Positions 1 to 16,460 of a DNA stretch of 16,460 bases are shown piece after piece. This stretch comes from Planctomycetota bacterium (lineage in GTDB: Bacteria > Planctomycetota > JAJSAM01). Position 1 is the first letter of the stretch, and every line of letters begins with the position of its first letter. The notes beneath the pieces were generated by a model. That model was not told where the DNA came from. It saw only the letters and a program-made list of their open reading frames with translations, and did not search any database. Location of the stretch: assembly GCA_024274785.1 (NCBI GenBank), contig JAJSAM010000020.1:1-16460 (forward strand). The letters run 5' to 3'. A program made the position numbers and the translations under genes.

Positions 1-2199
1 CAGCATCTCCTTCGTTCCCGAACCGCTCCGTAGCGGGCTGCCCTTCGACAACTCCGATTTCGCGACCAGCGTCTGGAAGGCCCGGAGCGTCTCCGGCCGG
101 TACGCATAGCCTCTCCCCAGGTCCGGGGCGGTGCGCCGGGTCACCGTGCGATTCACCTCCGCGGTATTTCCCGCCCGGTCGGTGGCCGTCACCTTGATCT
201 CGTAGCTCCCGTCCTTCGCAAAGCTCACCGTCCGCTCAAAGCGGCCACCCCGCAACGCGGTGTCCCGGTCGCAGACCCTCACCGTGCAGTCCGGCTCGTT
301 CACTCTTCCGCTGATCCGCAGACTGCTCGTCTTGATCGTCTGAGGCAGCGCGTCCAGGGTGATCACCGGTCTCTTCGTGTCCAGCGTCACCGTCCGCGTC
401 TTCCGGGTGCGGCGGCCCAACCCGTCGGTGGCGATCACCTCGATCTCGTTTCGCCCCTCCCCCAACCGCACCGCGGCCGTGAACCGCCCGCCCACCGCCC
501 GCACCGGGTCACCGTTCACCGTCAGCAGCTTCAGGGTCGCATCCTCCACCGTTCCCTTCACGGTGAGGTCCTGAGCTCTGGTCAGGTGACCTTCTGCCGG
601 CTGCTCCACCCGGAGCGTTGGCGCGGCGGTGTCGCACTCCATCTCCCGCGATGTCTCGGATCGATTCCCGGCCCGGTCGGTGGCCTCGATTCGAATCCGG
701 TTCTTCCCCTCCGCGAGGTCCAACGTGGTGCTGAAGCTGCCGTCCTCTTTCAGCGTCACCGCGTTTCCGGAGACCTCCACCTGCTCGAGGTGCGGGTCCC
801 GCGCCCGGCCCGAGACGGTCACCCTCCGGGTGGCGCAAAGCGCATCCGCGGCCGGCGCCTCGAGCTCGATCGCCGGCTTCGTCGTGTCGAGAATCACCGT
901 GAAGGTCAGCGGCTCGTGGCGGGTGCCCGCCCCGTCCACCGCCCATACCTCAAGCGTGGTCTCCCCCTCCGAGAGGTTGATCGGCACCTCGAAGTTCCCC
1001 TGCGAGGTGGGGCGATACCGCTCGCCATCCACAAAGACCCGGCCCCGCTCGCAGTCGGTCAGCGTCCCGCTGACCTTGAACCTCCGATCCCCGGTGATGG
1101 TCACCGCTTCAGAGGGGCTGCTGACCACCAGCTTGCCCATGAATACCGGTGCGGGAGGCGGCTTCGGATCCTCAGTGGGGGGAGGCGGCCTCTGCTCGGG
1201 AATCGTCGGCGCCGGTTTCGTTGCCTTCACCACCAGCGATTCCCGGCCCGGCCGAGGATCATCACCCTTCCGGCTGGCCAGCAACGCGATCCCACCGCCC
1301 ACCAGAAGCAGCAGCAGCGCCAGGATCAGCCCTACCCGCCGCTTGCCCTCTCTCGGCGGATCCTTCGCGTCGGGCGCTTCCCCGCGAATCAGACCCCCGC
1401 AGGATGCCGGACGGTCCCCGGCATCCTTCGAGAGACCCCGCAGGATCGATCGCCCAAGCCTCGACGGTGCATCCGGCAGGGGGGGAGGCTCGTTGTTTTC
1501 GATCTGGTGGGCGATCTCGCCCCGGTAGAACGGAGGGTGCCCCGCCAGGCACTCGTACATCGTCGCCGCCAGGCCATAGATGTCCTGGGACGGGGAAGGC
1601 AACTCCCCGTTCAACTGCTCCGGAGACATGTACGGCAACGTCCCCGAAGTGCTCTCTCCGGTCAGACGGGTCAGGCTCTCCTTCATCTCCCGGGCGATAC
1701 CGAAGTCGGCGATCAGCGGCGTGCCATCCTCGTGCAGCAGGATATTGCTCGGCTTGATGTCCCGATGGACCACCTTCTTCCCGTGGGCGTAGTCCAACGC
1801 CTCGGCCAGAGGAGTGAAGAGCGCCACCACCTGCTCCTCCGTCAGGGGGCCGTCCCGCGCCAACCTCTCCTCCAGCGTCTCGCCGGGGATGAAGTCCATC
1901 ACCAGAAAGACCCCGTCGCTGCTCTCCTTGAAATCGCGCAGGGTGACGATGTTGGTGTGAGTGAGAGTCATCCCCCGAAGAGCTTCCTGGCGGAGCTGCT
2001 GCACCGCCTTCCTGTTTCGGGCCAGCAACGCCGGAGGCAGCTTGATGGCCACCTCGTGATCCTTGTCCGCGGCCAGGTGCACCGTCCCCATCCCCCCGCT
2101 GCCCAGCTCCCGAATCACCCGGTAACGGCCCGCGAAGATGATCTCCTCAGCAGGTTTCTCGGTGCCTTCAGGGATGGGGTCGTGAGGATCGGCCGGCAA
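1..2199 (-). CDS. Hanks-type Ser/Thr protein kinase, membrane-anchored. It has a cytoplasmic N-terminal kinase domain, a single TM helix, a Pro-rich linker and at least four tandem Ig-like beta-sandwich repeats as ectodomain. The C-terminus lies beyond the window start (partial). The probable start is TTG at 2197-2199.
   Basis: Minus-strand translation gives the Gly-loop LGSGGMGTV, the VAIK lysine, [16 protein letters not shown] and [11 protein letters not shown] hydrophobic stretch follows ([21 protein letters not shown], about nt 1270-1330). Then come repeated ~85-aa modules, each ending T-x-TV-x-LDT-x-KP (for example [15 protein letters not shown] and [16 protein letters not shown]). The reading frame is open from 2199 to nt 1. 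There is no in-frame ATG upstream of the Gly-loop. TTG is preceded by GGGGAGAGAG about 7 nt upstream. The gene is absent from the ORF track because no stop codon falls inside the window. Confidence 0.85.
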
Positions 2200-2461
2200 G
2201 GTGTCTCTCTCCCCTCGATGGATGCCCGCTCCAAGGATATCGGATACGGGTGGTCCGATTCAATGAGGACGCACGGTGGAGGCGTTGTTTTTTGCGCCGT
2301 GGGTGTGCAGGCGCCGCGGTGGTTTCTTGTGCGGGCGCTCGGAGGGCGCCGGTCCCTCGGCGCCCTTGGTGGGGCGCGGACGAGACGGAGCTCGTCCCTC
2401 CTGGGCGCGTGCATCAGTGCTCTCGGTCCTGCGAACCAACTCTTGCGCGAGCCCCAAGGGG

Positions 2462-2495
2462 TTGGCAAACGTCCTGGTATGCCGTATGGTCATAC
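2462..2495 (+). promoter_or_regulatory. Putative sigma70 promoter of the toxin-antitoxin pair. It reads TTGGCA-N17-TATGGT and is overlapped by a direct/inverted GTATG repeat set (GTATG-cc-GTATG-gt-CATAC, 2477-2495). This is a candidate autoregulatory operator.
   Basis: The -35 TTGGCA lies at 2462-2467, followed by a 17-nt spacer and the -10 TATGGT at 2485-2490. GGAGGTG (2497-2503) sits 7 nt before the ATG at 2509. The repeats overlap the -10 and the transcription start region, as is typical for RHH antitoxin operators. Confidence 0.45.
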
Positions 2496-2508
2496 TGGAG
2501 GTGGTCCT

Positions 2509-2751
2509 ATGGGTGCGGCGAAAATCGCAATCAGCCTGGATAAAGCGCTGCTGAAGAAGCTTGACCGGCTGGTCAGGTCAAGTGTCTTTCCGAGCAGAAG
2601 TCGCGCCATTCAAGATGCGCTCACCGAGAAACTGGCGCGTCTGGAGCGAACCCGTCTCGCTCGGGAGTGCGCGAAACTCGATCCGGCAGACGAAAAAGCG
2701 TTGGCTGAAGAAGGCATGGCTGCGGAGATTGCCGAGTGGCCCGAATACTGA
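2509..2751 (+). CDS. Type II antitoxin of the ribbon-helix-helix (CopG family), cognate to the downstream MazF/PemK toxin.
   Basis: The 80-aa product has an N-terminal beta-strand ([17 protein letters not shown]) followed by two helices. There is a strong SD (GGAGGTG). The stop overlaps the start of the toxin gene by 16 nt. The track placed this segment at the tail of a spurious 721-aa ORF. Confidence 0.8.
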
Positions 2752-3074
2752 GGGGAGAAGTGCGATGGGCGGACCTGGCACCCACGCGAGGCCGCGAGCA
2801 GTCGGGGCGACGTCCGGTCCTGGTCATCAGCCAGGACGTATTCAACGCCCGCTCGGGAACAGTGATTGCGCTGGCGATCACGAGTCAGCCCCAGAAAGCA
2901 GGGTTCCCACTGACGCTCGAGCTTGCTTCGACGAAGCTGCCGAAGCGCTCATGGGTGAAGATCGGACAGATCCGAACTCTCTCAGTAGAGCGAATCGGCC
3001 GGAAGCTTGGCACGGTGGCTCCGGAAGAACTGGTTGCCTCGCTCGAGGGGCTGCATGAGATTGTGGGAACCTGA
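2736..3074 (+). CDS. mazF: Type II toxin of the MazF/PemK endoribonuclease family.
   Basis: The 112-aa product reads [32 protein letters not shown]...[10 protein letters not shown], the canonical PemK/MazF fold signature. The start is GTG, with GGAGA 8 nt upstream. It overlaps the antitoxin gene, the usual TA organisation. Confidence 0.9.
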
Positions 3075-3239
3075 CCAGCCGTTGCAGCCGACCAGCTTCT
3101 CCGGCGGCTGATCGGGCACCGCGGTCTACAGCTCGCCCATGTATTGCATGCTGTTGATGGCGACCATGAACCTTCTGGTGCCGAACTTCACCGACGCGGC
3201 GTCCACCAGCGGGACATACCGCTCCGGCTTCACCGTGAC

Positions 3240-4577
3240 TCAGTTCACCACGGTTCTCGCGGTGGGGGAGAGGGATGTTACGAACCACTCGCCGTGGTGG
3301 AAGACGATCGAGGCGTGCCTCGTCTCGATGCCCTCGCCGCTCAAGCGGATCGCCGCGTCTCGGGAACCCACTGCCGCCTTGCGGAACACCTGGATGTAGG
3401 TGTGCTGCGGCGTGTTGTCCAGGCGCTCGAGCCGAAGCGCATCGGCCGCGTGGGGATGCTCCGAGCCGACGCTCAGGCTGTCTTTCGGCCCCTCCGCCAG
3501 CGGATAGCCGAGCTTCAGGACCCGGCCGGGTTCGGACGGATAGAAGATCCTGCCGCCCAGGGTCAGCACCTTCTCGGTCCTGGTCAGGCGCAGCTTGAAG
3601 TTCTCGAAGAGCGGGATCCACTCCTTCACGGGAACCGGCTTGCCGTCGAGCAGCATGCCGTTCGTGCTGCCGGGATCCTGCACGCAGACGACATGGTCGC
3701 GCAGGCGAAAGGAGCCGTGGAATCTGGAGATCTGGCGGCTCAACGTGAGATTCCGATGATCCTGACGCTCGGAGCGGCAGGGAAGACATCGCAATACCAG
3801 CGGAATGGCGATATCCTCCTCGCGCAACTTGTCGAAGGTCGTCGGCTTCACTCCAAAGCGCAGCTCCCGCCTGGCGAACAGGAAGTAGCGCCGTTCCCTC
3901 CCCGCACCGGACGTCCGCTCCAGCAGGACGAGTTGCCGGACGCCCTCGTCCCGCCGCAGGCCGGGCTCCACCCAGCCGTCCGGTCGCGGGATGAGTTCCA
4001 GGGGAGCCCAGTTCCCTCTTTTCCCATTCCCGCGGTCCTTGTCCTGACTCTTGACCAGGTCCGAGATCTTCACGTCGCCGGTGTGGTTGTGGAACTTGAA
4101 CTTCGCACCGCTGACATCGGCGTTGAGTCCCTCGACCAGGTCGGCGATCGAAACATCCCCGACGTGCTCGTCAAACTCGAAGGTAACGCCCCGGAGGTCG
4201 ACTTCCCCACCCGCCTCTCCCGGATGGGCCACCTGAAACACCACCGAGTGATCCAGGACGTGGAGCAAGCGGGGGGACCTCTCTCCGGTGATCTGCAACT
4301 GAACGAGGATGGACGAGACCATCTCCTCCCCGGGCGTGTCGGGAGTGAACTGAAACCGGATGTCCTTCGCCTCGCGGGGAGTGAGCTGGATAGTCGCCGT
4401 CGTCTTCGCGAGCTCGATCCCCGGTACGTCGATGGACATGGTCAGCCGACCGCTGGTGTCGGTCAGATTCCGCACCTTGAAGTGCAACAGGCAGTGGTCG
4501 CCGACCCGGTAGCGCCGGGCCTGGTCGATCTCGACGAGGATGCCACTCTGAGCGAGGATTCTTGGATCTATGGACAC
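3240..4577 (-). CDS. Tandem FHA-domain protein. The N-terminal region contains an internally duplicated 27-aa module. The first FHA domain is complete, with GSTNG. The second FHA domain is terminated by an in-frame TGA.
   Basis: FHA1 reads ISRFHGSFRLRDHVVCVQDPGSTNGMLLDGKPV. FHA2 reads AIRLSGEGIETRHASIVFHHGEWFVTSLSPTARTVVN followed by a stop. I prefer the start GTG at 4577, 13 nt after the upstream stop and with AGGGAAG upstream. The track's longer GTG start at 4643 would overlap the upstream gene by 53 nt and has no SD. If the TGA at 3240-3242 is read through, the frame continues to TAG at 3126-3128. Confidence 0.75.
   Translation of the reverse strand: MSIDPRILAQSGILVEIDQARRYRVGDHCLLHFKVRNLTDTSGRLTMSIDVPGIELAKTTATIQLTPREAKDIRFQFTPDTPGEEMVSSILVQLQITGERSPRLLHVLDHSVVFQVAHPGEAGGEVDLRGVTFEFDEHVGDVSIADLVEGLNADVSGAKFKFHNHTGDVKISDLVKSQDKDRGNGKRGNWAPLELIPRPDGWVEPGLRRDEGVRQLVLLERTSGAGRERRYFLFARRELRFGVKPTTFDKLREEDIAIPLVLRCLPCRSERQDHRNLTLSRQISRFHGSFRLRDHVVCVQDPGSTNGMLLDGKPVPVKEWIPLFENFKLRLTRTEKVLTLGGRIFYPSEPGRVLKLGYPLAEGPKDSLSVGSEHPHAADALRLERLDNTPQHTYIQVFRKAAVGSRDAAIRLSGEGIETRHASIVFHHGEWFVTSLSPTARTVVN
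4053..4214 (-). repeat. Tandem in-frame duplication (2 x 81 nt) inside the FHA-protein gene. It encodes two copies of a 27-aa module (G-x-x-F-x-F-x-x-H-x-G-D-V-x-I-x-D-L-V).
   Basis: The plus-strand units gaccaggtccgagatcttcacgtcgccggtgtgg... (4053-4133) and gaccaggtcggcgatcgaaacatccccgacgtgc... (4134-4214) have a period of exactly 81 nt. The protein copies are GVTFEFDEHVGDVSIADLVEGLNADVS and GAKFKFHNHTGDVKISDLVKSQDKDRG. Confidence 0.6.
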
Positions 4578-4590
4578 GCGTTGTTCTTCC

Positions 4591-6456
4591 CTAAGTACCC
4601 GGAGGGGGACCGCAGAACGGGCAGGCCCTGCCCGTGTAATCACAGCCGCAGGAGTGGCACTTTTTCACCACCTCCGGCTTCTCCTCTTCCTTCTTTTTCG
4701 CGCCGACCACATCCCGGATCGCCTCCGCTTCGCGATCACCCGCCGTCGCCCGGGTCTCGACGGCCTTTGCCATGGCGTCGAAGGAGCGGTCCACCATCTT
4801 GTGGAGCAGCACGTCGTCCTTGTCCGCAGTGTCCCGCCGCACCGAGTCGAGTCGCTCCCGGAACTCCTTCTCCTTCGCCGCGGTCTCCTCGGCGTGTGTC
4901 TTTGAGAAGTACTCCTTCATCACCTCCTGCATACCGGCGTCCCCCTCGGCGCCGAGCGCGATGACGAGCTCCGGCGCCATGTCTTTGCCGGCCTGAAGGA
5001 CCGTGGCCTTCGCGCCGGCGCCGGTCAGTTTCTCCTCCCGCGCCAGCCGGGACTTCAACTCCTTCATGGTGGAGTAGAGGTCCACTCTCAGGCGCTTGTT
5101 CGTCGCCTCGAGCTGGTCCGCCCGCTCCTTCACGTCGAGTTCGCCCATGGCCCGGCGCTTCCACGAATCGTCTTCGAGCTGCCTGGTGTAAGCCCCGAAG
5201 TCGACCTCGGCCGTACGATTCGCAATGTCGGCGACCGCCTTCTTGCGGTCCTCTTCGATCAACTGCTCCAGCTTCATCAGCCGGTTCTCGCCGCTTTTCA
5301 GCACCTCCGCCCGGTCCAGCTCGAAGCGCTGCTCCAACTCGATTTTCCGCACCAGGAAGTCCCGAGCCCGGTGGCGGTCGTCCTGCTCGTAGGAGAGCTG
5401 GTCGGTCAAGGCATCCAGGTCGCTCTCGCCGATCAGCTTCTTCTCGAGCTGTTCCTGCGCGGTGCTCCGCAGGAACTCCTTCATGGAGGACTCGTCCTTG
5501 ACCTCCTCCATCCGGGCGTGCTGCATGCTCTTTCTCAGGTCGGCCCACGCCTCGGCCTTCTTCGCGTGCCACTCGGCATCCTGCTTCGCCAGCGCGTGCT
5601 CTTCCTTCTCCTTCTCGAGGAGCAGCGCCCGCTCCTTCATGATCTCGCGAATGTCGTCGAGATCCGGCACATGCACGTCGAGGGTCTCCACGCGGTGCAT
5701 CACCAGGCCGTAGCCCTCCAGCGTGGTCCGCATGTGGGCCCGGATCGTCCCGTTCAGCTTCTCCTTGAAATCCTCGTTGCCGATCACCTCGCTGGCGATC
5801 CACCCGCCGGCGGCATCCTCCACGGCGTTCCGGACCACGTCCTGGAGGCGGTGGCCGATGGCCTTCGTGGTCAGGGAGACGGCACTCTTCATCAGGTTGG
5901 TGAGCAGACGCTCGGGGTTGTTGATCTCGAGAACCACCCTCGTATCGATATCCATCGGGATGCCGTCACTCGAGCGCACCGAGTGGAAGGTGTAGCGCAG
6001 CGGGAACTCCGAGAGGTCGAAGTAGACGACCTCCTTGCGCCGGGCACCCTCCGCCCCGACCTGGAGATCCCGGAAGGTGCTCTCGATGGCGTGCGAGCCG
6101 GGGTCGAGCGTCTTGAGAAACGCCCCATCCCCGAGAAGCATCGCGCCGTGGCCGAAACGCACGGTGATCTGTCCGCTGACGGCGTGCTCCTTCGTGTCCA
6201 CCCGGTATTTCCGGGAGAGCTCCCCGGCATCGGGATCCCACAGGAAATCGAAGGAGATCTCCCGCTCGATCGGCGGAAGCTCCATCCCGCACCGATGGCA
6301 GATCTTGTCGGTCGGTGTGGCGATGCCGTCACAACCCTCCTTGGTGCACACGCGGTACACGTTGGGCCCCGGGGCGCCGCAGTTCGGGCAGAACCGGCAC
6401 TCCTCCGGCAGCGGCTTCCGGCAGCTCGTGCACTTGTCTTTCTTGTCGAAGATCAT
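4591..6456 (-). CDS. Flotillin-like SPFH (band-7) domain protein. It has two N-terminal and one C-terminal Cys4 zinc-ribbon motifs and a long E/K/R-rich coiled coil.
   Basis: The 621-aa product has these parts. N-term: CTSCRKPLPEECRFCPNCG and CTKEGCDG...CHRCG. SPFH core: ITVRFGHGAMLLGDGAFLKTLDPGSHAIES...IPMDIDTRVVLEINNPERLL. Coiled coil: about 330 aa of heptad-like charged sequence. C-term: CHSCGCDYTGRACPFCG. The gaps to the flanking genes are 11 and 13 nt. Confidence 0.8.
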   Translation of the reverse strand: MIFDKKDKCTSCRKPLPEECRFCPNCGAPGPNVYRVCTKEGCDGIATPTDKICHRCGMELPPIEREISFDFLWDPDAGELSRKYRVDTKEHAVSGQITVRFGHGAMLLGDGAFLKTLDPGSHAIESTFRDLQVGAEGARRKEVVYFDLSEFPLRYTFHSVRSSDGIPMDIDTRVVLEINNPERLLTNLMKSAVSLTTKAIGHRLQDVVRNAVEDAAGGWIASEVIGNEDFKEKLNGTIRAHMRTTLEGYGLVMHRVETLDVHVPDLDDIREIMKERALLLEKEKEEHALAKQDAEWHAKKAEAWADLRKSMQHARMEEVKDESSMKEFLRSTAQEQLEKKLIGESDLDALTDQLSYEQDDRHRARDFLVRKIELEQRFELDRAEVLKSGENRLMKLEQLIEEDRKKAVADIANRTAEVDFGAYTRQLEDDSWKRRAMGELDVKERADQLEATNKRLRVDLYSTMKELKSRLAREEKLTGAGAKATVLQAGKDMAPELVIALGAEGDAGMQEVMKEYFSKTHAEETAAKEKEFRERLDSVRRDTADKDDVLLHKMVDRSFDAMAKAVETRATAGDREAEAIRDVVGAKKKEEEKPEVVKKCHSCGCDYTGRACPFCGPPPGT

Positions 6457-6467
6457 CGCTTTTCCTT

Positions 6468-8060
6468 CTACGCCGTCGTGCCGAAGTAACTCTTGCGTTC
6501 ATCGAGCTTGCCGTCGATCTCGAGGGCCATCGCCCGCATCAGCTTCAGGTGCTTTTCGGGGTTGCCGCCGGCGACGACCGAGTCACAGGCCGCCTTCGCC
6601 TCGCGCGTCAGCTCCTTGATCTGTCCGCTCACCGCGGTCTGGAACGACACCAGCCTGTCCAGGTTCTCCTTCGGAAGCTTGCCCTTCAGGAAGTCCTGGG
6701 CCTCTCCGTCCGCGGCGAACTTCACCTGGTTCTGCAACTCCTCGATCCGCTCACTCGCCGAGAGGATACTCCTGGCCGAATCGGCGTTCCCGGCTTCACG
6801 CGCCTGGTGGTGCGCCTCGGCCAGGGCCTTCTTCGAACTCTTCAGCTCGCGAAGGAGCAGGGCCCGGAGATCCTTGTCTTGCTGCAACACCTCGCGAACA
6901 TGGTCGGCCTCGTTGGCTTCCGTCCCGGCCGCGGTGATGCCTCGCTCGCGACGCCGGACCGGCTCCCGCTTCTTCATCGCCCGGCGGATCACCAGGCCGA
7001 GGAACAGGACCGCGATGAGCCCGAAGCCGATGTAGAGGACGATCGGGTTGTCCCTGAGGAAGGACCATGCCTTCGCCTCCCTGCTGTCCCCGGGCGCGCC
7101 CGGAATGAGGTTTCTGATCCGCTGGCACTCCGCCTTCAACCATTGGTCGCCCTGGTGCCCGCTCTCGAGCTCCTCGACCAGAGCGATCACGCGGTCGCGA
7201 TCGACCTTCCCGGCGAGCACCGCTTCCCAGGCCGGCGTCGTCAGCATCCGCCGGACGTCGTTCAGGAAGTCGCTGAGGGCCGGGCGGACGCTCGGATCGG
7301 CCTCACTGTACAGGTCGTTGATCAGGCGATAGGCCTCGTCCGCATTCCCGAGGTCGATCTGTCCCTGGATCTTCGCCAGGGCGGTGGCCTGGGATCGGAG
7401 GGTCTCCGCCCGGTTCTTCAGCAGGCCGAGCTCGGTGCCGAGCTCCGGATTCGACGCCACCGCGTCGGCGATCCGGGCCAGGCATTCGTCGATCTTCCCG
7501 GCGGCGAGCAGGCGGTTCAGGTTCTCGAGGACGGCGAGGTCCACGATGTCGGAGAGGTCGCTCCCCCAGACCTTCTCGGCGGTCTTCGCCACCCAGAGGG
7601 AGAGGTCCACGGTCGGCTTGAACTTGCCTCCGCCGAGGTCTTCCACGCCATACCGGACGAACAGCAGCCCCTGCGCCGCCTTGAATTTCCAGCCCAGCTC
7701 GTCGTAGGTCGCCGGGTTGTAGCGGATCTCCTCGGGATTCATGAACGCCTGGTCCACGAACTCCTTCACTCCCTCGTACGGCCAGACCTCGGTCAGACCA
7801 TCCACCCGGGCGATGGCGTTGCTCAGGGGTTTCTTGAGATCTTCCGCCAGCGGACCGTCGGGGCCCACGAACAGCGCAAGGTGCTCGATGCCGGCCTTCC
7901 CCAGCTCACCCGAGGAGACCAGGTCCTGCTCGATCTGCCGGACCGCCCAGTCCCTGAGCTTCTCCAGCGCGATGCGCTCTTCGGCGACGCCCGCCATCAG
8001 GGGGGCCGCCGTGGCGATCAGCACGGCCAGCGCGATCGTGATGATCCTTGCGGTTTTCAT
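6468..8060 (-). CDS. Bitopic membrane protein of unknown function. It has a signal peptide, a periplasmic domain of about 290 aa, one TM helix and a cytoplasmic coiled-coil tail of about 190 aa.
   Basis: The start ATG at 8060 is preceded by AGGAGAG. The signal peptide is MKTARIITIALAVLIATAAPLMAG and the TM helix is IVLYIGFGLIAVLFLGLVI. The C-terminal region is charged and helical. The track's longer MCKERT start lacks an SD. Confidence 0.7.
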   Translation of the reverse strand: MKTARIITIALAVLIATAAPLMAGVAEERIALEKLRDWAVRQIEQDLVSSGELGKAGIEHLALFVGPDGPLAEDLKKPLSNAIARVDGLTEVWPYEGVKEFVDQAFMNPEEIRYNPATYDELGWKFKAAQGLLFVRYGVEDLGGGKFKPTVDLSLWVAKTAEKVWGSDLSDIVDLAVLENLNRLLAAGKIDECLARIADAVASNPELGTELGLLKNRAETLRSQATALAKIQGQIDLGNADEAYRLINDLYSEADPSVRPALSDFLNDVRRMLTTPAWEAVLAGKVDRDRVIALVEELESGHQGDQWLKAECQRIRNLIPGAPGDSREAKAWSFLRDNPIVLYIGFGLIAVLFLGLVIRRAMKKREPVRRRERGITAAGTEANEADHVREVLQQDKDLRALLLRELKSSKKALAEAHHQAREAGNADSARSILSASERIEELQNQVKFAADGEAQDFLKGKLPKENLDRLVSFQTAVSGQIKELTREAKAACDSVVAGGNPEKHLKLMRAMALEIDGKLDERKSYFGTTA

Positions 8061-8082
8061 GGTTCTCTCCTTGCACATCCCA

Positions 8083-8997
8083 CTAGCGGTTGGTGTTCAC
8101 TTCGACTTCGGTCCGGTTGTCCGTACCGCTCTGCTCGAGTCTCTTTTCGAGGAGCGAGGCGAGGTCGCCCTCGTAGTCCCGGGCGAGCCACAGCGTGAAG
8201 GTCGCGGACGAATCTGCCGGGTCCTTGATCAGGTCGGCCAGCACCACGCCCTCCTCGTCGCCGATGGCGCCCTCGATCGCATCGCACCACGCGTCGAGGT
8301 CGACCTCCCCGGATTCGGTGGAAAGGGAGACGACCTTCACGCGGGTCTCAACCGCGTACTCGCTCACCTTTTCGTGGACGAGGTCGGCGGCGGTGGTGCA
8401 CATCCGGTCGAGCACCTGCCGCGTGGCGCGGGCCTCGGTGAGGTCGGCTCCGCTCTCAGCCGAGAGGGGAGCGCGGTAGAGTGGCCGCCCATCCGACCTG
8501 CGATCCACCGCCACGTCCCCGTCCCCGTGTACCTGGACGCGCCCGGCGCCGAGTTCCATGACCTTCCACGCCTTCAGGTTCAGGCGGATGAGGACCTGCG
8601 CGGCGGCGTGGCCCGTCGTCCCGGGTGCGGCGAGGCGAAGGCCCCGGTCGAGGAGATGCTGCTCGAAGAGTACCCGGATCGCCCCGGTCTCGTCGCTGCC
8701 GTCCTTCTTCGCCTGGATCTCGAGTTGAAGCGCGTATTCCTCAAGCGCCGGGTTCTTCGTCGTCTCCGGGACGTGGAGGTTCACCACCGGGGCGCTCTTT
8801 TTCACCTCGAGCTTCATTCTGGCCTGACGCAGGGTCGGCTGTGGCTCGGCCCCGGGCCCGGCTTCGGCTTCGTGCTCGAGTCGGGGCGGAGGGGCCTTCT
8901 CGACGGGATCCGGAACCGCGGTGCATCCCGAGGCCAGCACCGCCACTCCGAGGATCATCGCCCCGAGCAGCGAATTGCGAATGCGGTCAGCCATCAT
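8083..8997 (-). CDS. Lipoprotein of unknown function (signal peptide with lipobox L-A-S-G-C).
   Basis: The product begins MMADRIRNSLLGAMILGVAVLASGCTAV. There is a very strong SD (GAGGAGGAAGAG) directly upstream. It is the first gene of the four-gene minus-strand operon. Gene gaps are 22, 11 and 13 nt. Confidence 0.8.
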   Translation of the reverse strand: MMADRIRNSLLGAMILGVAVLASGCTAVPDPVEKAPPPRLEHEAEAGPGAEPQPTLRQARMKLEVKKSAPVVNLHVPETTKNPALEEYALQLEIQAKKDGSDETGAIRVLFEQHLLDRGLRLAAPGTTGHAAAQVLIRLNLKAWKVMELGAGRVQVHGDGDVAVDRRSDGRPLYRAPLSAESGADLTEARATRQVLDRMCTTAADLVHEKVSEYAVETRVKVVSLSTESGEVDLDAWCDAIEGAIGDEEGVVLADLIKDPADSSATFTLWLARDYEGDLASLLEKRLEQSGTDNRTEVEVNTNR

Positions 8998-9031
8998 GTC
9001 TCTTCCTCCTCGATATCACACTGCGGGAGAA

Positions 9032-9047
9032 AGCAAGGAACAGGCCA
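9032..9047 (-). promoter_or_regulatory. Sigma54 (RpoN) -24/-12 promoter element TGGCCTGTTCCTTGCT in front of the four-gene operon.
   Basis: The minus strand reads a-TTTGGCCTGTTCCTTGCTT. This gives GG-N10-GC spacing against the consensus TGGCACG-N4-TTGCW, with the -12 element TTGCT perfect. The predicted transcription start is near 9021, about 24 nt upstream of the ATG at 8997. The transcript includes the SD. Confidence 0.55.
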
Positions 9048-9151
9048 AATGAGAATACGAAAGGCCACGGCCGGAAAGCGGCGAAGACGGCGAAATGCGT
9101 GAACCCGCAATCCCTCCCGTGAGCGACGGCTCACATGGCCCGATCCTGAAT

Positions 9152-10213
9152 TTAGCCCGCCTCGCCCTGGCGGTCAACGCCGTCTGTGCCGAGATCGGGG
9201 CGTCGCGGGAGGACCATGGTCAGCCTCGCGCCGCCATGGGGGAGATTTGTCGCCTCGATGCGGCCGAAATGCTCCTTCGCGGCTTCCATGATCAGGGAGA
9301 TGCCTTCCCCGCTGCCGGAAGTGGAGATGCCGCGCTCGCCGAAGTGCTTCAGAACCTCCTCGGTGAACCCGTCGCCGTCATCCGTGACGGTGATCAGGGT
9401 GTCGGTGGAGGGCGGTCGGGCCTCCTCGACGCGCACCGTGACCCGCGTGGCCTGTCCGCCGTGGCGCACCACGTTGCGCAGGAGTTCCGCCACCGCGTCG
9501 GCGATGCGGGGTTCATCGAGGAACAGGCGCGCGCCGCCGTCGGTCTCGTCGTCGTACTCGAGGGTGATCCCCGCTTCGGTCAGCATCGGCTCGAGGGCCC
9601 GGACAGCCTGCTCCACCGGCCGGCTGAGAGGCGCCTTGCGGCTGTCGAGCCAGGTGCGCAGCGAGGAGAGGGACTCGGTCAGGAGGTCCACCTTCTCGGT
9701 GACCGCGTTCCCGGTGAGCTTCTTCGTGTCCAGCTTGTAGATCTCGCACAGCTTCAGCACGCCCTTCGTGGCGCCGAGAGCGGCCTTGCAGGAGAGCGGC
9801 AGAAGGTCTTTCAGGCTGACGCCCATCACGAGTGGCCGGGAGAAGAACGAGACGACCTGGTCGGCGACGCTGGGGATGAGGGCGACCTGTTTTCCGAGGC
9901 TCTTCAGCAGGCCGGCGTCCTCCGGGCAATCGTTCATGGCCTGGCCGAAACTCTTCAGGTTCATCAGGCATGATTCGACCACGGAGTGCCGCAGTGCGGA
10001 GTCCAGCCGGGCGAGCACGTGGAGGGCGCGCACGTCGAGATCCTCGGGCCGTTTCGGGGGCGTTTCCGGCGGGGGGAGAACCTGCGTGATCGCCTCGACT
10101 CTCCGGACGAATCGCGCGGATCGTTCCCGATCCTCGGGCGTCAGCATGCGATCGAGGCTGGCGAGGATGCGTTTCTCCTCCACCTTCACCGCCGCGCGGG
10201 CGGCCGCCTCCAT
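9152..10213 (-). CDS. Soluble (non-membrane) sensor histidine kinase with a C-terminal HATPase_c domain. The start is uncertain.
   Basis: N-box ELLRNVVRHG, G1 VTDDGDGF and G2 GSGEGISLI are present near the C-terminus. No TM segment is seen and the N-terminal part is coiled-coil-like. The ATG at 10213 has GGAGGAG 5 nt upstream. Alternative starts are ATG 10246 and the track's TTG 10366. The gene is divergent from the sigma54 activator gene. Confidence 0.65.
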   Translation of the reverse strand: MEAAARAAVKVEEKRILASLDRMLTPEDRERSARFVRRVEAITQVLPPPETPPKRPEDLDVRALHVLARLDSALRHSVVESCLMNLKSFGQAMNDCPEDAGLLKSLGKQVALIPSVADQVVSFFSRPLVMGVSLKDLLPLSCKAALGATKGVLKLCEIYKLDTKKLTGNAVTEKVDLLTESLSSLRTWLDSRKAPLSRPVEQAVRALEPMLTEAGITLEYDDETDGGARLFLDEPRIADAVAELLRNVVRHGGQATRVTVRVEEARPPSTDTLITVTDDGDGFTEEVLKHFGERGISTSGSGEGISLIMEAAKEHFGRIEATNLPHGGARLTMVLPRRPDLGTDGVDRQGEAG

Positions 10214-10427
10214 GTTCTCCTCCTGCCGGCGGTAGCTCTCCTCCATCTTCTCGATGCGTTTCCGGTAGGCGCTGCCAGGGTCGTCGTTGCTCAATGGACT
10301 CTCTCCCGGTGGGTGTTCCGCGGGGTCTGACACAATCAACGTGCCAAAGCGGGAGGGAGTGTGCAAGGGCGTGGCGGCGAACTCCTTCCTCGACTACGAT
10401 GAGCGGTGGCGGGCGCGGAGGGCAAAC

Positions 10428-11921
10428 ATGCATCGCATTCTGATCGTGGATGACAAGGCGGACGAGTTCGAGCCGGGGCTTCGGGCCATCTTTCCCCGGG
10501 ATCATCTCGTCCTCGTCCACTCCGGAAAAGAGGCGCTCGCGGTGCTTTCCGAGGACGAGGTGTTCGACGTCGTGCTGCTCGACATCCGGATGCCCGCCGA
10601 AATGGGCTCCTGCGACGAGGAGGAGGGGCTCGCGGTGCTGGTCCGGCTCTGTGACGAGTGGCCGGAGCTGCCGGTGATCCTCCTCTCCGTGCTCTCCGAC
10701 GTGGAGACGGTGGTCCGGGGCATGAAGCACGGCGCGTTCTACTACGTCCAGAAGCCGCCGGACCGGGGGAAGCTCCGCCACCTCGTCGCGAAGGCCGCGG
10801 AGCGCAGCCGCAGCGCCGCGGAGCGGCAGACCTTGAAGGAGATCATCGACCTGCGCGACGTCGCGGCCACCGGCTCCATCACCTCCGGGACGAGAACCGG
10901 GCTGGGCAGCCTGGTGGGCCGGAGCGCCCCGATGCAGGCTCTCTTCGGTCTCATCGAGCGGGTGGCGCGCGCGAACGCCACGGTCCTCATCCTCGGGGAG
11001 ACGGGCACCGGCAAGGAGCTGGTGGCGAAGGAGATCCACCGGCTGAGCCCGAGGTCGGGCAAGGCCCTCAGGGTGGTCGGTTGCCCGAACATCGCGAGGG
11101 AGCTGCTCGAGTCCACGCTCTTCGGGCATCGGCGGGGGGCCTTCACCGGCGCGGAAGTGGATCGCGAGGGCGAATTCGTGCTGGCCGATGGCGGAACGCT
11201 GTTTCTCGACGAGGTCGGCGAGCTGGAATCGACTCTCCAGGCCAAGCTTCTGCGCGCCCTCGAGACCGGTGAGGTTCACCCGCTCGGCTCCCGCGACCCG
11301 GTGAAGGTGGATGCCCGGATTGTCTCCGCCACGCATCGCGATCTCCGTGAGCTGGTGGGGGAGGGCACCTTCCGGGAGGATCTCCAGTACCGCCTGAATG
11401 TCCTCCGCGTGGAGCTGCCGCCGCTGCGGGATCGCCTGGACGATCTCCCGTTCCTGGCCCCGGCGCTCCTCGGGAAGATCGCCCCGGATCGCCCCGGCCT
11501 GCATCTCTCCGCCGAGGCTCTCGGCCGGCTCGAGACCCACTCCTGGCCGGGCAATGTGCGGGAACTGAGAAACGTCCTCGAGCGCGCCGCGGCTCTCACC
11601 GATGGCGACGAGATCACGCCGGACGCGATCCAGATCGACCGGGACGCCGAGCCGGGGACGACGAATCCCGCCGAGGCCGCTTTCGCCCGGGCGCTGGCCG
11701 GCCGGCCGTTTGAGGGTGGGATCAGGAGGTTTCGTGACCAGCACGGCGAGGTGGCCTTGAAGGACCTCCTGATCCGGGCGCTGCGCACCACGACGAATGT
11801 CCGCCGGGCGGGGGAGCTGCTGGGTTTCATCGGCGCGGAGGACCCGAAGCGGGACTACGACAACCTCCGCCAGTGGATGCGGAAGCTCGAGGTGTCGAAG
11901 CGAAGCGCGCTGGGGGGGTGA
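10428..11921 (+). CDS. Sigma54-dependent response regulator of the NtrC family (REC + AAA+ sigma54-interaction domain + C-terminal HTH).
   Basis: The REC domain has acidic residues and VVLLDIRMP. The Walker A motif is GETGTGKE. The GAFTGA motif is intact in [10 protein letters not shown]. The Walker B motif is [10 protein letters not shown]. The C-terminal HTH reads [25 protein letters not shown]. The start ATG at 10428 has GGAGGG upstream. The track's longer TTG extension is unlikely. Confidence 0.9.
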
Positions 11922-11946: not shown

Positions 11947-13674
11947 TCAGAGGTCCGGCACCGGGTGAGCTCGCTCCCACGCGAGGTGCCGGCGCAACTG
12001 GAGGAGCTGCCCCAGGGGGAACACCAGGGGCCAGATGGGTATCAGGAGCAGCCTGCTGATGAGTCCGGGGCCTCTCCATTCCTCCGCGATCCGGGCGCGC
12101 TCCTCCGTGAGCCACTCGGGATCCTGCCGGGTGAAGGCGATCACCTCGGCCTCTTCACGGCGATGCCGGCGCAGGACGACTTCGAAGAGGACCCAGCAGG
12201 TGATCAGCAGCCCGAACTGCAGAAACAGGGATGGAAAGTAGAGGATGATCCCGAGATCCGCGTCGTCCAGCTCGTCGAAGAATCCGTTGAAGTCTTCCAG
12301 CAGAAGGATCAGCAGTCCGAAGGCCGACGCCGCCGCGAGGACGATCATCGCCCGGCGCAGGAGCCGCAGTTTCGCCGGGGGGGGAACTCTCCCTGCAAGG
12401 CCCGGTTTCGGCTCTCCCGATCCGGCGGTTGAGAGAACCCGGGAGAGTTCGATCTGGCGGCGTCGGATGTGGTCGATGAGGGCATAGATCATCAGCAGCG
12501 CGCAGATCGGCGCCAGGCTCGGATAGAAGGGGAGCAGGAGGGCCTGCAGCGAGCCGAGGAGGATGCAGAGCGTGGTCAGCGAATCGATGGACCATCCCGT
12601 GGCGGGCTCGGTCCGGGCCGGTGGGTTCGCGGGCGGTTCGGGGGAGGTCGGGGCCGGGGCGGGGGCCGGGGCGCTGCATTCCGATCGGTCGGAGGGCTCG
12701 TCCGGCGGCGGGATTCGTTCGGGCGCCGGCAGGGGTGGCGGCGCGGGTGATGGGAGGGGCGGGAGAGGTGGTGGCGGCCGGGAGGGCGGCGCGGCGGGCG
12801 GCCCTTGCGGCCTGGTGGGTGGCTTCGGCGGCACCGGGGGCGATTCGAGGATCGCCTTGCAGCTCGCCGGTCGATCAGCGGGATCCTTCGAGAGCGCTTC
12901 CATGATTCGCGTGACCAGCAAGGAGCCGGAGGTATTGGGCGCCCTGGGCTCCTTCTGCGCGATCTGCACCGCGATCTCGCCCCGATGGAACGGGGGGCTT
13001 CCGGCGAGGCATTCGTACATGGTCGCGGCGAGGGAGTAGATGTCCTGGGCCGCGGTGGGCGGTTCGCCGAAGAGCTGTTCCGGGGACATGTAGGGCAGGG
13101 TCCCGGAGGAGCTCTGACCGGTGATCCGGGTCAGGCTGTCCTTCAGCTCCCGGGCGATGCCGAAGTCGGTGAGGAAGGGGCGGCCATCCTCCCGGACGAG
13201 GATGTTGCTCGGCTTGATGTCGCGGTGGATCACCTTTTCGCTGTGTGCGTAGTCGAGGGCCAGGGCGAGCGGCGTGAAGAACTCCACCACCTCTTCCTCG
13301 GTGAGTGTCTCCCGCTCGCCGAGGACGTCCTGGAGGGTCTCCCCCGGAACAAAGTCCATGACCAGGAAGACGTCGCCCTCGCTCTGCTCGATGGTGCGCA
13401 GGGTCACGATGTTGGGATGGGAGAGCCGCCGCGCCAGCAGGGCCTCCTGCTGCATACGCCGCACCACCTTGACGTCCTGTGCGAGGAGGATCGCCGGCAC
13501 CTTGATCGCCACCAGGAGGTCGTCGAGCTGGGTGTCCGCGGCGAGCAGCACTTTCCCCATGGCCCCCTGCCCGAGTTCGCGCAGGACCCGGTAGCGCCCC
13601 AGCAGAACCAGTGGTCCTGCCCCTTCGCAGGTATCCTCGTCGCCACTCAGCGGATCGATGAACTCGCCACTCAT
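11947..13674 (-). CDS. Hanks-type Ser/Thr protein kinase with a Pro/Ala-rich linker and a C-terminal polytopic (about 4 TM) membrane domain. It is a paralogue of the kinase at 1-2199.
   Basis: Motifs seen are [28 protein letters not shown] and [10 protein letters not shown]. The Pro-rich segment reads PPVPPKPPTRPQGPPAAPP...APAPAPTSPEPP. Four hydrophobic helices follow. The start ATG (MSGEFIDP) at 13674 has GAGG 7 nt upstream. Confidence 0.85.
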   Translation of the reverse strand: MSGEFIDPLSGDEDTCEGAGPLVLLGRYRVLRELGQGAMGKVLLAADTQLDDLLVAIKVPAILLAQDVKVVRRMQQEALLARRLSHPNIVTLRTIEQSEGDVFLVMDFVPGETLQDVLGERETLTEEEVVEFFTPLALALDYAHSEKVIHRDIKPSNILVREDGRPFLTDFGIARELKDSLTRITGQSSSGTLPYMSPEQLFGEPPTAAQDIYSLAATMYECLAGSPPFHRGEIAVQIAQKEPRAPNTSGSLLVTRIMEALSKDPADRPASCKAILESPPVPPKPPTRPQGPPAAPPSRPPPPLPPLPSPAPPPLPAPERIPPPDEPSDRSECSAPAPAPAPTSPEPPANPPARTEPATGWSIDSLTTLCILLGSLQALLLPFYPSLAPICALLMIYALIDHIRRRQIELSRVLSTAGSGEPKPGLAGRVPPPAKLRLLRRAMIVLAAASAFGLLILLLEDFNGFFDELDDADLGIILYFPSLFLQFGLLITCWVLFEVVLRRHRREEAEVIAFTRQDPEWLTEERARIAEEWRGPGLISRLLLIPIWPLVFPLGQLLQLRRHLAWERAHPVPDL

Positions 13675-13778
13675 GGTCAACCTCGGCCCGGTGAACACCC
13701 GGGACCGCCAGAGGATAGATCCCCTCCGCCCCCGGAGACAAGGGGTCAGGTCTGACTTTTGTCCGTATCCCGACATTT

Positions 13779-14732
13779 TCAGCCGCCGGAAGCCCACTCC
13801 AGGTTGCCGCCGGAGAGGACGATGCCGACTCTCCGAGTGCCCTCGAGAGCCTGGAACTCACCGGTCAGTACCGCGGCCAGGGTTGTTGCCGCGCTCGGCT
13901 CGATCACGATTTTCATGCGGGTCATCACGAGGTGCAGGGCGGTTCGGATCTCGTCGTCGGTGACTCGCACCACGCGCTCGAGATGATCCCGGAGGATCGG
14001 CCAGGTCAGGTCGCCGAGGCTCGTCAGGAGGCCGTCGGCAATGGTGTCCGGTGCGGTCTGGGGGATCAGGCGGCCGGCGGCCAGGGAACGCCAGGCGTCG
14101 TCCGCGCCGTGGGGCTCGGCGGCGATCAGGTGGAGATCCGGGTTCATCCCACGGGCGGCCACGCAGATGCCCGACATCAGCCCGCCACCACCCACCGGCG
14201 CCACGATGGCGTCGAGATCCGGCACATCCTCGAGCAGTTCCAGCGCCACGGTGCCCTGGCCGGCGATGACGTCCTGGTGGTTGAACGGGTGCAGCAGCGT
14301 CGCCCCCGTCGCCGCGACGACTTCCGCGGAGCGCTCCTCCCGCGCGGCCAGGGTCGGTTCGCAGTCGTAGACGGTCGCTCCATAGCCGATTGTTGCCGCC
14401 CGTTTCACCGCCGGGGCCGACGTCGGCATCACGACGTGAGCGGGAATCCCCCGCGCCCGGGCGGCGAGCGCGAGCGCCTGGGCGAAGTTGCCGGAGGAGT
14501 GGGTGGCGACGCCCCGCCCCGCCTCCGCGGCGGCGAGCGCGAACACCGCACTCGCCGCGCCGCGCATCTTGAACGCGCCGCCCCGCTGGAAGTTCTCGCA
14601 CTTGAAGAAGAGCTCGCGCCCGGCCAGTTCGTCGATCAGGCGGGAGGTCAGCACCGGGGTGCGGTGGATGTGGGGCCGGATGCGCTCGGCGGCCATACGC
14701 ACCGCCCTCAGGTCCGTGGCATCGTTGTTCAT
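13779..14732 (-). CDS. PLP-dependent threonine/serine dehydratase family enzyme (fold-type II; catabolic-type, no ACT domain).
   Basis: The 317-aa product has FKCENFQRGGAFKMRGA (the PLP-lysine motif), HSSGNFAQA and the glycine-rich GGGGL loop. It lies 100 nt upstream of, and co-oriented with, kinase 2. Confidence 0.85.
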   Translation of the reverse strand: MNNDATDLRAVRMAAERIRPHIHRTPVLTSRLIDELAGRELFFKCENFQRGGAFKMRGAASAVFALAAAEAGRGVATHSSGNFAQALALAARARGIPAHVVMPTSAPAVKRAATIGYGATVYDCEPTLAAREERSAEVVAATGATLLHPFNHQDVIAGQGTVALELLEDVPDLDAIVAPVGGGGLMSGICVAARGMNPDLHLIAAEPHGADDAWRSLAAGRLIPQTAPDTIADGLLTSLGDLTWPILRDHLERVVRVTDDEIRTALHLVMTRMKIVIEPSAATTLAAVLTGEFQALEGTRRVGIVLSGGNLEWASGG

Positions 14733-15931: not shown

Positions 15932-16381
15932 CTACCCCGCAGTCAACGCCTCGATGACTTCTTCCCCGGTGTCCGCGGTCTCCAGCGCCTCCTTCAGAAC
16001 GGGGTCGTTCAGGATGCTGGAGATGTGGCTCAGCACCAGGACATGGGGGCTCGTGGCGCCAGGATCGGAGACGACCAGGATGAAGATGCGACAGGGCTGG
16101 TGATCGATGGAATCGAACGGAATGGGCTTCCTGGCGATGCCCACAGAGATCATGACGCCATCGACGCAGGCGGTCTTGGCGTGAGGAATCGCCACGCCCC
16201 GGCCGATGCCGGTCGACATGACCTCCTCGCGCTCCAGGACCGCATCAAGGATTTCATCCCGGCCGCCGTTTCCGCCTTCGAGAGGCAGCGCGGAAACCAG
16301 CCGCCGGATGATCTCCTTCTTCGACCCCTTTTTCAGGTCGAGGAGGATGCATTCGGGCTTCAGGAGTTCGTTGAAGTCCAT
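15932..16381 (-). CDS. ptsN: PTS EIIA-Ntr nitrogen regulatory protein (PtsN-like, fructose/mannitol-type EIIA).
   Basis: The 150-aa product (MDFNELLKPECILLDLKKGSKKEIIRRL...) has STGIGRGVAIPHAK (the phosphorylatable His region). The track's TTG-extended start is unlikely. The gene is not next to rpoN/hpf here. Confidence 0.75.
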   Translation of the reverse strand: MDFNELLKPECILLDLKKGSKKEIIRRLVSALPLEGGNGGRDEILDAVLEREEVMSTGIGRGVAIPHAKTACVDGVMISVGIARKPIPFDSIDHQPCRIFILVVSDPGATSPHVLVLSHISSILNDPVLKEALETADTGEEVIEALTAG

Positions 16382-16460
16382 CGGGGGAGTATGTGACGGC
16401 GGGAACCTCGCACCTAGCAAGATTCGCCGGGCAGATCTCGCGGCGCCTCGAAGACGGGGG

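Follow-up and report, generated by a model that had tools for sequence, protein, structure and literature searches.

The functions of bacterial SPFH proteins, and the way in which their assembly is controlled, are still largely an open question. An operon on a contig from a Planctomycetota bacterium (GenBank assembly GCA_024274785.1, contig JAJSAM010000020.1) raises this question in a specific form. The complete contig of 16,460 bp, with a G+C content of about 66%, was analysed and is called the window here. Four minus-strand genes of this window, packed behind a sigma54-type promoter element, encode a lipoprotein, a bitopic membrane protein, an SPFH protein with zinc ribbons, and an FHA protein. 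What would such an assembly do in the cell, and what would switch it on? The reading favoured here, which is given roughly an even chance of being right, is that the operon encodes an inducible SPFH scaffold that lies at the inner membrane, on its cytoplasmic side, and is controlled by kinases. The evidence comes from close relatives, in which the operon continues into Ser/Thr kinase genes, and from a much larger SPFH family whose genes are commonly flanked by genes for kinases of the same kind. This consistent genomic link between SPFH, kinase and FHA genes points to phosphorylation-controlled assembly of a membrane scaffold, and it provides a testable handle on the problem.

The operon, its promoter and its products

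The four genes follow one another on the minus strand in the order lipoprotein (gene 1, 8083-8997, 304 aa, of no known family), type-I or bitopic membrane protein (gene 2, 6468-8060, 530 aa), Zn-ribbon SPFH protein (gene 3, 4591-6456, 621 aa) and FHA protein (gene 4, annotated at 3240-4577 as a 445-aa product with a GTG start). The gaps between them are only 22, 11 and 13 nt, and a scan found no terminator-like sites between the four genes on the minus strand. A scan of the window with the sigma54 pattern TGGC-N7-TTGCW gave a sole strict match, the -24/-12 element TGGCCTGTTCCTTGCT (TGGCCTG-TTCC-TTGCT; 9032-9047, minus strand), which lies 35 nt 5' of the first ATG and just 5' of a strong ribosome-binding site. 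By chance 0.14 matches are expected, and 29 of 200 shuffled sequences contained at least one. The match gains weight because of its position before the first ATG and ribosome-binding site and because it is conserved in the related contig L001, where no change is found in the GG and GC elements or their flanks and only the 4-nt spacer differs (TT versus CC).

The conservation in L001 extends far beyond the promoter. This contig aligns with the window from position 9262 to 3130, that is, from the interior of the histidine kinase gene upstream of the operon to the exact end of the FHA reading frame, at 79.9% identity. It carries the same four genes, and these are followed by a gene for a 302-aa membrane-anchored kinase that starts on the FHA stop codon and, 6 nt after that, by a second kinase gene with an FGE-sulfatase domain. 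Contig L025 retains the SPFH gene, an intact 484-aa FHA gene, one kinase gene and an FGE-sulfatase fragment, and the kinase encoded directly after the FHA protein in L001 and L025 is 302-325 aa long. Partial synteny with the operon, with the gene order kept as in L001 and L025, is also found in L003 and L004, and the SPFH-then-FHA order is kept in the more distant L002, at 38% identity for the SPFH protein and 41-44% for the FHA protein. By these comparisons, the four genes form a real, tightly packed unit, conserved behind a conserved sigma54 promoter, and the unit evidently extends beyond them, since relatives continue into Ser/Thr kinase genes. The first-pass annotation, made from the sequence of this contig, had proposed four packed genes behind a sigma54 element, and that arrangement is borne out and is conserved as a unit; its restriction of the module to four genes does not hold, because L001 and L025 run on into kinases.

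The SPFH protein is identified by its match to Pfam Band_7 (PF01145; 56.6 bits, cut-off 23.6) over residues 103-294. Its layout consists of two Zn ribbons, the SPFH domain, a coiled coil of about 300 aa and a further Zn ribbon, and the alignment of SPFH proteins shows 12 invariant Cys residues in CxxC or Cx4C pairs, which make up three Cys4 ribbons. No hydrophobic or transmembrane segment is predicted anywhere in the protein. It had been described as SPFH/flotillin-like, and the SPFH half of this label stands; flotillin is too specific, since the protein gives no Flot hit in Pfam and lacks the membrane hairpin of FloT and FloA. Its score against the YdjI-type family Band_7_1 (PF13421) is 20.1 bits, below the cut-off of 24.

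The FHA protein matches Pfam FHA (PF00498) in two stretches, at 49.1 bits against a cut-off of 20.7, and its intact orthologue in L001 scores 70 bits. It has no transmembrane segment, and the FHA stretches also hit Yop-YscD_cpl weakly. The region ahead of the tandem FHA unit is probably Ig-like: its structural model, of low confidence (mean pLDDT, the predicted local distance difference test, of 48), contains a beta-sandwich at residues 12-116, Foldseek retrieves generic Ig-like domains with TM-scores of 0.25-0.38, and Pfam at E<=10 gives weak Ig-like hints only, such as CARDB (E 0.2). Homology of this region to the Ig region of PQQ-TPR proteins, which are encoded near relatives of the SPFH gene (see below), was considered and rejected, as it is not detectable.

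The remaining two products belong to no recognised family. The lipoprotein has a signal peptide and the lipobox L-A-S-G-C and is 63% identical to its L001 orthologue, and it finds no match in Pfam (even at E<=10), NCBIfam, PADLOC or the PDB. The bitopic protein, whose 530 aa are counted from the ATG behind AAGGAGAG (an alternative start of the open reading frame is at 8078), consists of a signal peptide, a periplasmic domain made up in part of TPR-like helices, one transmembrane segment (340-358), a basic stretch and a helical cytoplasmic tail of 170 aa. Its AlphaFold2 model has a mean pLDDT of 58 and is confident only at residues 173-320, which are helical. It matches no Pfam or other family, and a word-indexed search of 5.8 billion proteins found two members, the query and one relative. 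The profile searches thus recovered Band_7 and FHA and assigned no family to the lipoprotein or the bitopic protein, and sequence searches of NCBIfam, PADLOC and the PDB gave nothing usable for any of the four proteins. The product types proposed at first pass nevertheless agree with the Pfam matches, the predicted topology and the invariant Cys residues, and the two proteins without a family gain a defined genomic setting.

The likely regulators are encoded immediately upstream. A gene for a soluble histidine-kinase-like protein (9152-10366, minus strand; HATPase_c, start codon uncertain) directly precedes the operon, and its 3' end lies likewise upstream of the operon in L001. The protein has neither a HisKA or H-box match nor a transmembrane segment, and nothing matches the 280 aa at its N-terminus. 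It is possibly a sensor kinase of an atypical or degenerate kind. Divergent from its gene is that of a sigma54 response regulator (10428-11921, plus strand) with REC, AAA+ and C-terminal helix-turn-helix domains, an enhancer-binding protein (EBP) that retains GAFTGA, Walker A and the receiver Asp, matches Pfam Sigma54_activat and REC, and lacks a transmembrane segment. The Response_reg match falls at residues 51-167 of a 544-aa reading frame that begins with the TTG at 10287. A palindrome, TGTGAGC-N4-GCTCACG, at 9118-9135 lies outside coding sequence about 80 bp upstream of the -24 element; it is conserved with L001, has no second exact copy in the window and is followed by a conserved GTTCAC half-site. 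It is a candidate enhancer (upstream activating sequence) to which the EBP may bind. A consensus scan also picked out a sigma70-like sequence (TTGACC-17-TAAATT, 9149-9177, minus strand) that overlaps the 3' end of the histidine kinase gene. Both of its hexamers fall within blocks conserved in L001, but the stretch is partly coding; this site is a possible second promoter.

The wider SPFH family and its kinase and FHA neighbours

A word-indexed search with the SPFH protein returned four proteins. When a profile of its subfamily was searched exhaustively against 1.84 billion cluster representatives, 526 of these matched at E<=1e-3, 293 at E<=1e-10 and 29 at E<=1e-30. Many of the matching proteins are 550-800 aa long and align from end to end (from about position 6 to about 617), and the full-length members that were inspected share the order Zn ribbon, SPFH, coiled coil, Zn ribbon, most of them with 5-6 CxxC motifs. 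Translated searches (tblastn) with the window protein against loci L005-L023 gave E-values down to 1e-38. Judged from these alignments, the window protein is a divergent member, at about 20-25% identity, of a sizeable, unnamed and little-described family. The close subfamily comprises some six contigs: the window, L001, L003, L004, L025 and the more distant L002. An alignment of this close subfamily recovered one 1.2-kb fragment in a scan of metagenomes and no relatives in a scan of viral contigs.

A scan of genomes with one subfamily identified 19 loci, among them 13 in Chloroflexota/Anaerolineae (including Levilinea saccharolytica and Leptolinea tardivitalis), two in Planctomycetota, and one each in Smithellaceae, Geobacteraceae and the archaeon Methanocalculus taiwanensis. 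When the open reading frames of the loci were clustered, 19 of 24 loci proved to have Hanks-type kinase genes beside the SPFH gene, mostly in the same direction and often three to six in tandem. This is probably far above the genomic background, as judged from general knowledge of kinase density. Together with the kinase genes inside the operon of close relatives, it upholds the suggested connection to Ser/Thr kinases, and the kinase link is the strongest signal found for the module.

The gene contexts fall into two types, one (a) in Anaerolineae and Methanocalculus and the other (b) in Smithellaceae and Planctomycetota. The Anaerolineae loci encode a helix-turn-helix protein, a 230-aa coiled-coil protein, a single-domain AAA ATPase of the Cdc48/Vps4 clade and arrays of kinases, along with a PQQ-TPR-Ig-Zn-ribbon protein, a VWA-transmembrane-Zn-ribbon protein, an uncharacterised 450-aa protein and a second SPFH paralogue that lacks the ribbons. 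The Methanocalculus locus (L019) is limited to the AAA ATPase, which here gives a Vps4_C hit, together with three kinases and the Zn-ribbon SPFH protein.

The second type is the one to which the window belongs. In the Smithellaceae locus (L015) the order is an FhaA-like protein (FhaA_N plus FHA), a protein with a Zn ribbon and tandem FHA domains, a kinase with an FGE-sulfatase domain, a bitopic protein, the SPFH protein and further kinases; the bitopic protein has a signal peptide, a CsgG/LpoB-like periplasmic domain, a transmembrane segment and a coiled coil. In a Planctomycetaceae locus (L023) the SPFH gene lies with genes for a tandem-FHA protein, an LRR kinase and an FHA-caspase fusion. 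In hhalign the window subfamily's tandem-FHA unit aligns with those of L015 and L023 at probabilities of 96% and 95% (E 2.6e-9 and 2e-8), over 180-222 columns that take in both domains and the linker between them. The unit is by this alignment homologous as a whole across the window subfamily, L015 and L023. The window is a third instance of the second context type, with its closest parallel in L015, a likeness that extends to the FGE-sulfatase kinase and to a bitopic protein whose cytoplasmic part forms a coiled coil.

Some further features of these loci can be recorded. The conserved Anaerolineae array, which the cultured Levilinea and Leptolinea also carry, is seen in L008, L011, L016, L018 and L021 (at about 0-15 kb in each), with a counterpart at L019:139-1344, and it is similar to the ESCRT-type 'adaptin' loci of archaea, described in recent papers as absent from bacteria. 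The 230-aa coiled-coil protein of the array has no Snf7 or PspA hit. An ESCRT-III-like or PspA-like character of the tail of the window's bitopic protein was also rejected, as its hhalign comparison with this coiled-coil protein gave a probability of 0.4%, and Foldseek compared it with CdvB at E of about 1 on a low-confidence model. Homology of either the lipoprotein or the bitopic protein of the window to the CsgG/LpoB-like bitopic protein of L015 was likewise rejected, since hhalign detected no similarity. The L023 fusion (L023:11630-15190) adjoins the SPFH gene and is about 1,190 aa long, with FHA, a caspase-like peptidase C14 domain and planctomycete cytochrome c domains. In L022 an uncharacterised 1157-aa reading frame (L022:4350-7823) occupies the same position, with two kinase genes also beside the SPFH gene, and a census of neighbours lists Peptidase_C14 and PSCyt1 in two members. 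The FHA-caspase neighbour hints at a proteolytic output in the Planctomycetaceae lineage.

A proposed kinase-controlled scaffold and its rivals

How might the parts work together? The soluble histidine kinase would phosphorylate the REC-AAA+ activator, and this would open the sigma54 promoter after binding to the palindrome that lies about 80 bp upstream of the -24 element; EBPs with REC and AAA+ domains activate such promoters from upstream sites. The SPFH protein would then oligomerise through its SPFH domain and long coiled coil, like other SPFH proteins, which form rings or cages on membranes. An SPFH protein without a transmembrane segment needs an anchor, as is the case for B. subtilis YdjI, which is encoded with YdjG and YdjH. 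Because the window protein also has no such segment, its membrane anchor is probably the bitopic protein's helical cytoplasmic tail. The periplasmic domain of the bitopic protein would, along with the lipoprotein, link the assembly to the envelope. A component would be phosphorylated on Thr by membrane kinases whose extracytoplasmic sensor domains are of the Ig-like or FGE-sulfatase type. FHA domains read phosphothreonine made by Hanks kinases, and the first FHA domain would dock on this mark, leaving the FHA protein's Ig-like domain to recruit or cross-link a partner. The likely output would be local maintenance or remodelling of the membrane or envelope.

The best-studied parallel is the ydjFGHI operon of B. 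subtilis. Two reports describe YdjI as an SPFH protein with a Zn ribbon and no transmembrane segment, encoded with the membrane proteins YdjG and YdjH, and as required for the localisation of PspA to the membrane (PMC10936438, PMC11237479). The two systems share an SPFH protein of this type with a C-terminal Zn ribbon, possible membrane anchors encoded alongside, a coiled-coil or low-complexity membrane partner and an envelope context. They differ in that the window has no PspA, its SPFH protein adds two N-terminal Zn ribbons and the coiled coil of about 300 aa and falls below the Band_7_1 cut-off, its partners are kinases and an FHA protein, and its regulation is of the sigma54 type. Flotillins and HflK/C also have an SPFH domain followed by a long helical oligomerising region and are thought to organise membrane patches; unlike them, the window protein has Zn ribbons at both ends and no N-terminal transmembrane segment or hairpin, and no NfeD or FtsH partner. 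The module would work most like an anchored SPFH scaffold of the YdjGHI type combined with a kinase/FHA adaptor module.

Several observations weigh against this reading. The sigma54 match is not rare when taken alone (at least one match in 14.5% of shuffles), and the sigma70-like site lies 100 bp upstream of it. The lipoprotein and the bitopic protein are without detectable relatives beyond a few near-identical contigs, and the likeness to the L015 bitopic protein is only topological. The close SPFH subfamily is very rare, with about six contigs across all collections, and the scan of species-representative genomes with its alignment found nothing. Of the five signature residues of the pattern G-R, S-x-x-H and N, the first FHA domain keeps G242, S284, H287 and N306, with Val or Leu in place of the canonical Arg behind the conserved Gly (Arg is present in L002), and the second retains, as read from the alignment, only the Gly and His; phosphothreonine binding is for this reason plausible, not assured. 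No PP2C phosphatase is encoded in the window or in related contigs. The module is described here from sequence data, and in this contig it may be partly non-functional.

The last point arises at the 3' end of the operon. The full reading frame of gene 4 runs from 4577 to a TAG at 3126 on the minus strand, and the annotated product ends at an in-frame TGA at 3240-3242. The stop at 3240 taken as the end of the gene at first pass is present, but the conserved frame continues beyond it. The context is AAC TGA GTC in the window; L001 and L025 instead have AAC GGC GTA, with a Gly codon. Intact orthologues have a length of 483-484 aa. The 37 codons past the TGA are in frame and 81% identical to L001, the same as the remainder of the gene. 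The Gly that is lost belongs to an 'NG' turn in the second FHA domain, and truncation at this point would remove the last strands of that domain. Recoding of the TGA as Gly or Sec was rejected, as TGA is the genuine stop of five other genes in the window and recoding is thereby excluded. The TGA is accordingly a nonsense change of recent origin, a variant within the population or an error in the assembly.

Just beyond lies a mazEF-type pair (2509-3074, plus strand, convergent with the operon), made up according to Pfam of an RHH antitoxin (2509-2751) and a PemK/MazF toxin (2736-3074), with its own sigma70-like promoter at 2462-2490. The pair occupies the slot (2260-3125 of the window) that holds the short membrane-anchored kinase gene in L001 and L025, and it separates the remaining left kinase from the operon. 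It had been mentioned at first pass as a weak hint of an accessory context, and it more plausibly represents a damaging insertion into the operon than a clue to function. The 3' end of this copy thus appears damaged, with the second FHA domain cut by the TGA and the first kinase gene replaced by mazEF.

It could be supposed from these changes that the module in this genome is a decaying remnant that no longer works as a unit. The in-frame TGA, in place of GGC in L001 and L025 and genuine as a stop elsewhere in the window, and the replacement of the short kinase gene by mazEF are what such decay would produce. The codons that follow the TGA are nonetheless as well conserved as the rest of the gene and so show no decay, the other three genes and the promoter are intact, two paralogous kinases are encoded nearby, and the TGA itself could reflect an error of assembly or variation within the population, the contig being assembled from a metagenome; a remnant is accordingly an unlikely but real possibility. 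The mazEF pair also enters into the idea of an anti-phage or abortive-infection system, in which kinases would sense infection and the SPFH and FHA proteins would disrupt the membrane. The window kinases resemble PADLOC defence kinases (PD-T4-6, E 1e-66), and L023 has the FHA-caspase fusion beside its SPFH gene, with Peptidase_C14 hit in a second reading frame of the census. The PADLOC matches are, however, generic kinase-domain similarity: the four core proteins have no PADLOC hits of their own, with only generic kinase and EBP domain hits found, no relatives occur in viral contigs, no nuclease, protease or pore effector is encoded in the window, and a dedicated two-component system with sigma54 control would be unusual for defence genes. 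The suggestion of a defence module, raised at first pass, finds no backing in these searches and is considered very improbable.

The sigma54 promoter and its EBP invite comparison with the phage-shock response. The module could be a PspA-less stress system in which a damaged inner membrane is stabilised by an SPFH/Zn-ribbon effector, induced through sigma54 and the EBP, and in which the kinases and FHA protein are incidental. Zn-ribbon SPFH proteins do partner PspA in the B. subtilis ydj operon (PMC11237479), and archaeal ESCRT-III loci carry an SPFH/coiled-coil/Zn-ribbon protein (PMC10936438). The E. coli psp regulon likewise consists of sigma54-dependent, envelope-related genes with the EBP encoded next door. 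The window EBP is, in contrast, a phosphorylation-controlled response regulator that scores 227.7 bits against the PspF model, far below the cut-off of 443.55, and PspA/IM30, PspB and PspC are absent from the window genes scanned against Pfam. The kinase association across the family is also too consistent to be incidental. The Psp analogy drawn at first pass is weak, and a system of this kind is judged quite improbable. If instead the kinases and FHA protein are central, the SPFH protein could be a phospho-regulated client in a pathway governing envelope synthesis or division, as with M. tuberculosis PknA/PknB and FhaA/FhaB or P. aeruginosa PpkA-Fha1-TagQ/R. Those modules also place membrane kinases with sensor domains beside FHA adaptors, with a lipoprotein in the cluster; L015 has an FhaA_N plus FHA protein beside the module, the FHA matches weakly hit Yop-YscD_cpl, and the lipoprotein is encoded with a kinase bearing an FGE-sulfatase-type extracytoplasmic domain, a parallel to TagQ and TagR, which act on PpkA. 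This alternative is improbable for other reasons. Genes for peptidoglycan synthesis, division, or type VI or type III secretion are absent from the window, L001 and L025, and neither type VI secretion core genes nor PP2C occur in the 16.5-kb window or related contigs. The core conserved across phyla consists of SPFH, kinase and FHA with no biosynthetic enzyme, and the window FHA protein represents a distinct tandem-FHA family with an Ig-like N-terminus, joined to an SPFH partner that those systems lack.

The kinase-controlled scaffold has a bolder extension, which is put forward as speculation and is rather doubtful. The combination of Zn-ribbon SPFH protein, Hanks kinases and tandem-FHA protein might represent a widespread, undescribed bacterial machine for membrane remodelling or cargo sorting, in evolutionary continuity with the SPFH component found in ESCRT-type loci of archaea. 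Phosphorylation on Thr would mark membrane sites or cargo and an SPFH cage would enclose them, and the Gram-negative version would be coupled to the outer envelope by the lipoprotein and bitopic partner and expressed on demand from the sigma54 promoter. The archaeal 'Meth_adaptin' ESCRT loci contain an SPFH/coiled-coil/Zn-ribbon protein (Makarova et al. 2024, PMC10936438). The SPFH architecture and the protein family are shared, and within the family defined by the profile hidden Markov model, a Cdc48/Vps4-clade AAA ATPase is encoded along with kinases in L019 and in many loci from Anaerolineae. The window side differs in having an FHA protein, a lipoprotein and a bitopic protein, the identity is only about 20-25%, and neither a Vps4-like AAA ATPase gene nor an ESCRT-III/Snf7 gene is found in the window, L001 or L025. 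The occurrence of this SPFH family beside Cdc48/Vps4-clade ATPases in Anaerolineae and a methanogen may form a bridge between the biology of bacterial SPFH proteins and the ESCRT-type systems of archaea. Literature searches gave no account of a bacterial Zn-ribbon SPFH/kinase/tandem-FHA system, in agreement with the first-pass statement that the arrangement was not one recognised as described.

Kinases and other flanking genes of the window

The flanking genes reported at first pass are all present: the histidine kinase, the EBP with GAFTGA, two paralogous Ser/Thr kinases, the toxin-antitoxin pair of the MazF family and an EIIA gene. The left Ser/Thr kinase (1-2199, minus strand) runs off the contig end and has a kinase domain, one transmembrane segment and four Ig-like (Glucodextran_B) repeats. 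It is the orthologue of the second operon kinase of L001 (L001:7027-8754), with 68% identity. Its four repeats are inserted between the transmembrane segment and the region that corresponds to the FGE-sulfatase domain in L001. The sensor module of this kinase has been remodelled between close relatives.

The right Ser/Thr kinase (11947-13797, minus strand) consists of a kinase domain, a Pro-rich linker and a polytopic membrane C-terminus. The kinase domains of the right and left kinases share 61% identity, and both retain VAIK, HRD and DFG. The C-terminal part (window 11947-12700) contains 4-5 hydrophobic segments and matches no family. A pyridoxal-phosphate-dependent (PALP) gene ends inside the longest reading frame of this kinase (13779-13797), so that the ATG at 13674 is the probable start of the kinase; both genes run in the same direction and may be co-transcribed. 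Further out, the EIIA gene is of the EIIA(Ntr) type and is recognised at 15932-16420 by the Pfam family PTS_EIIA_2.

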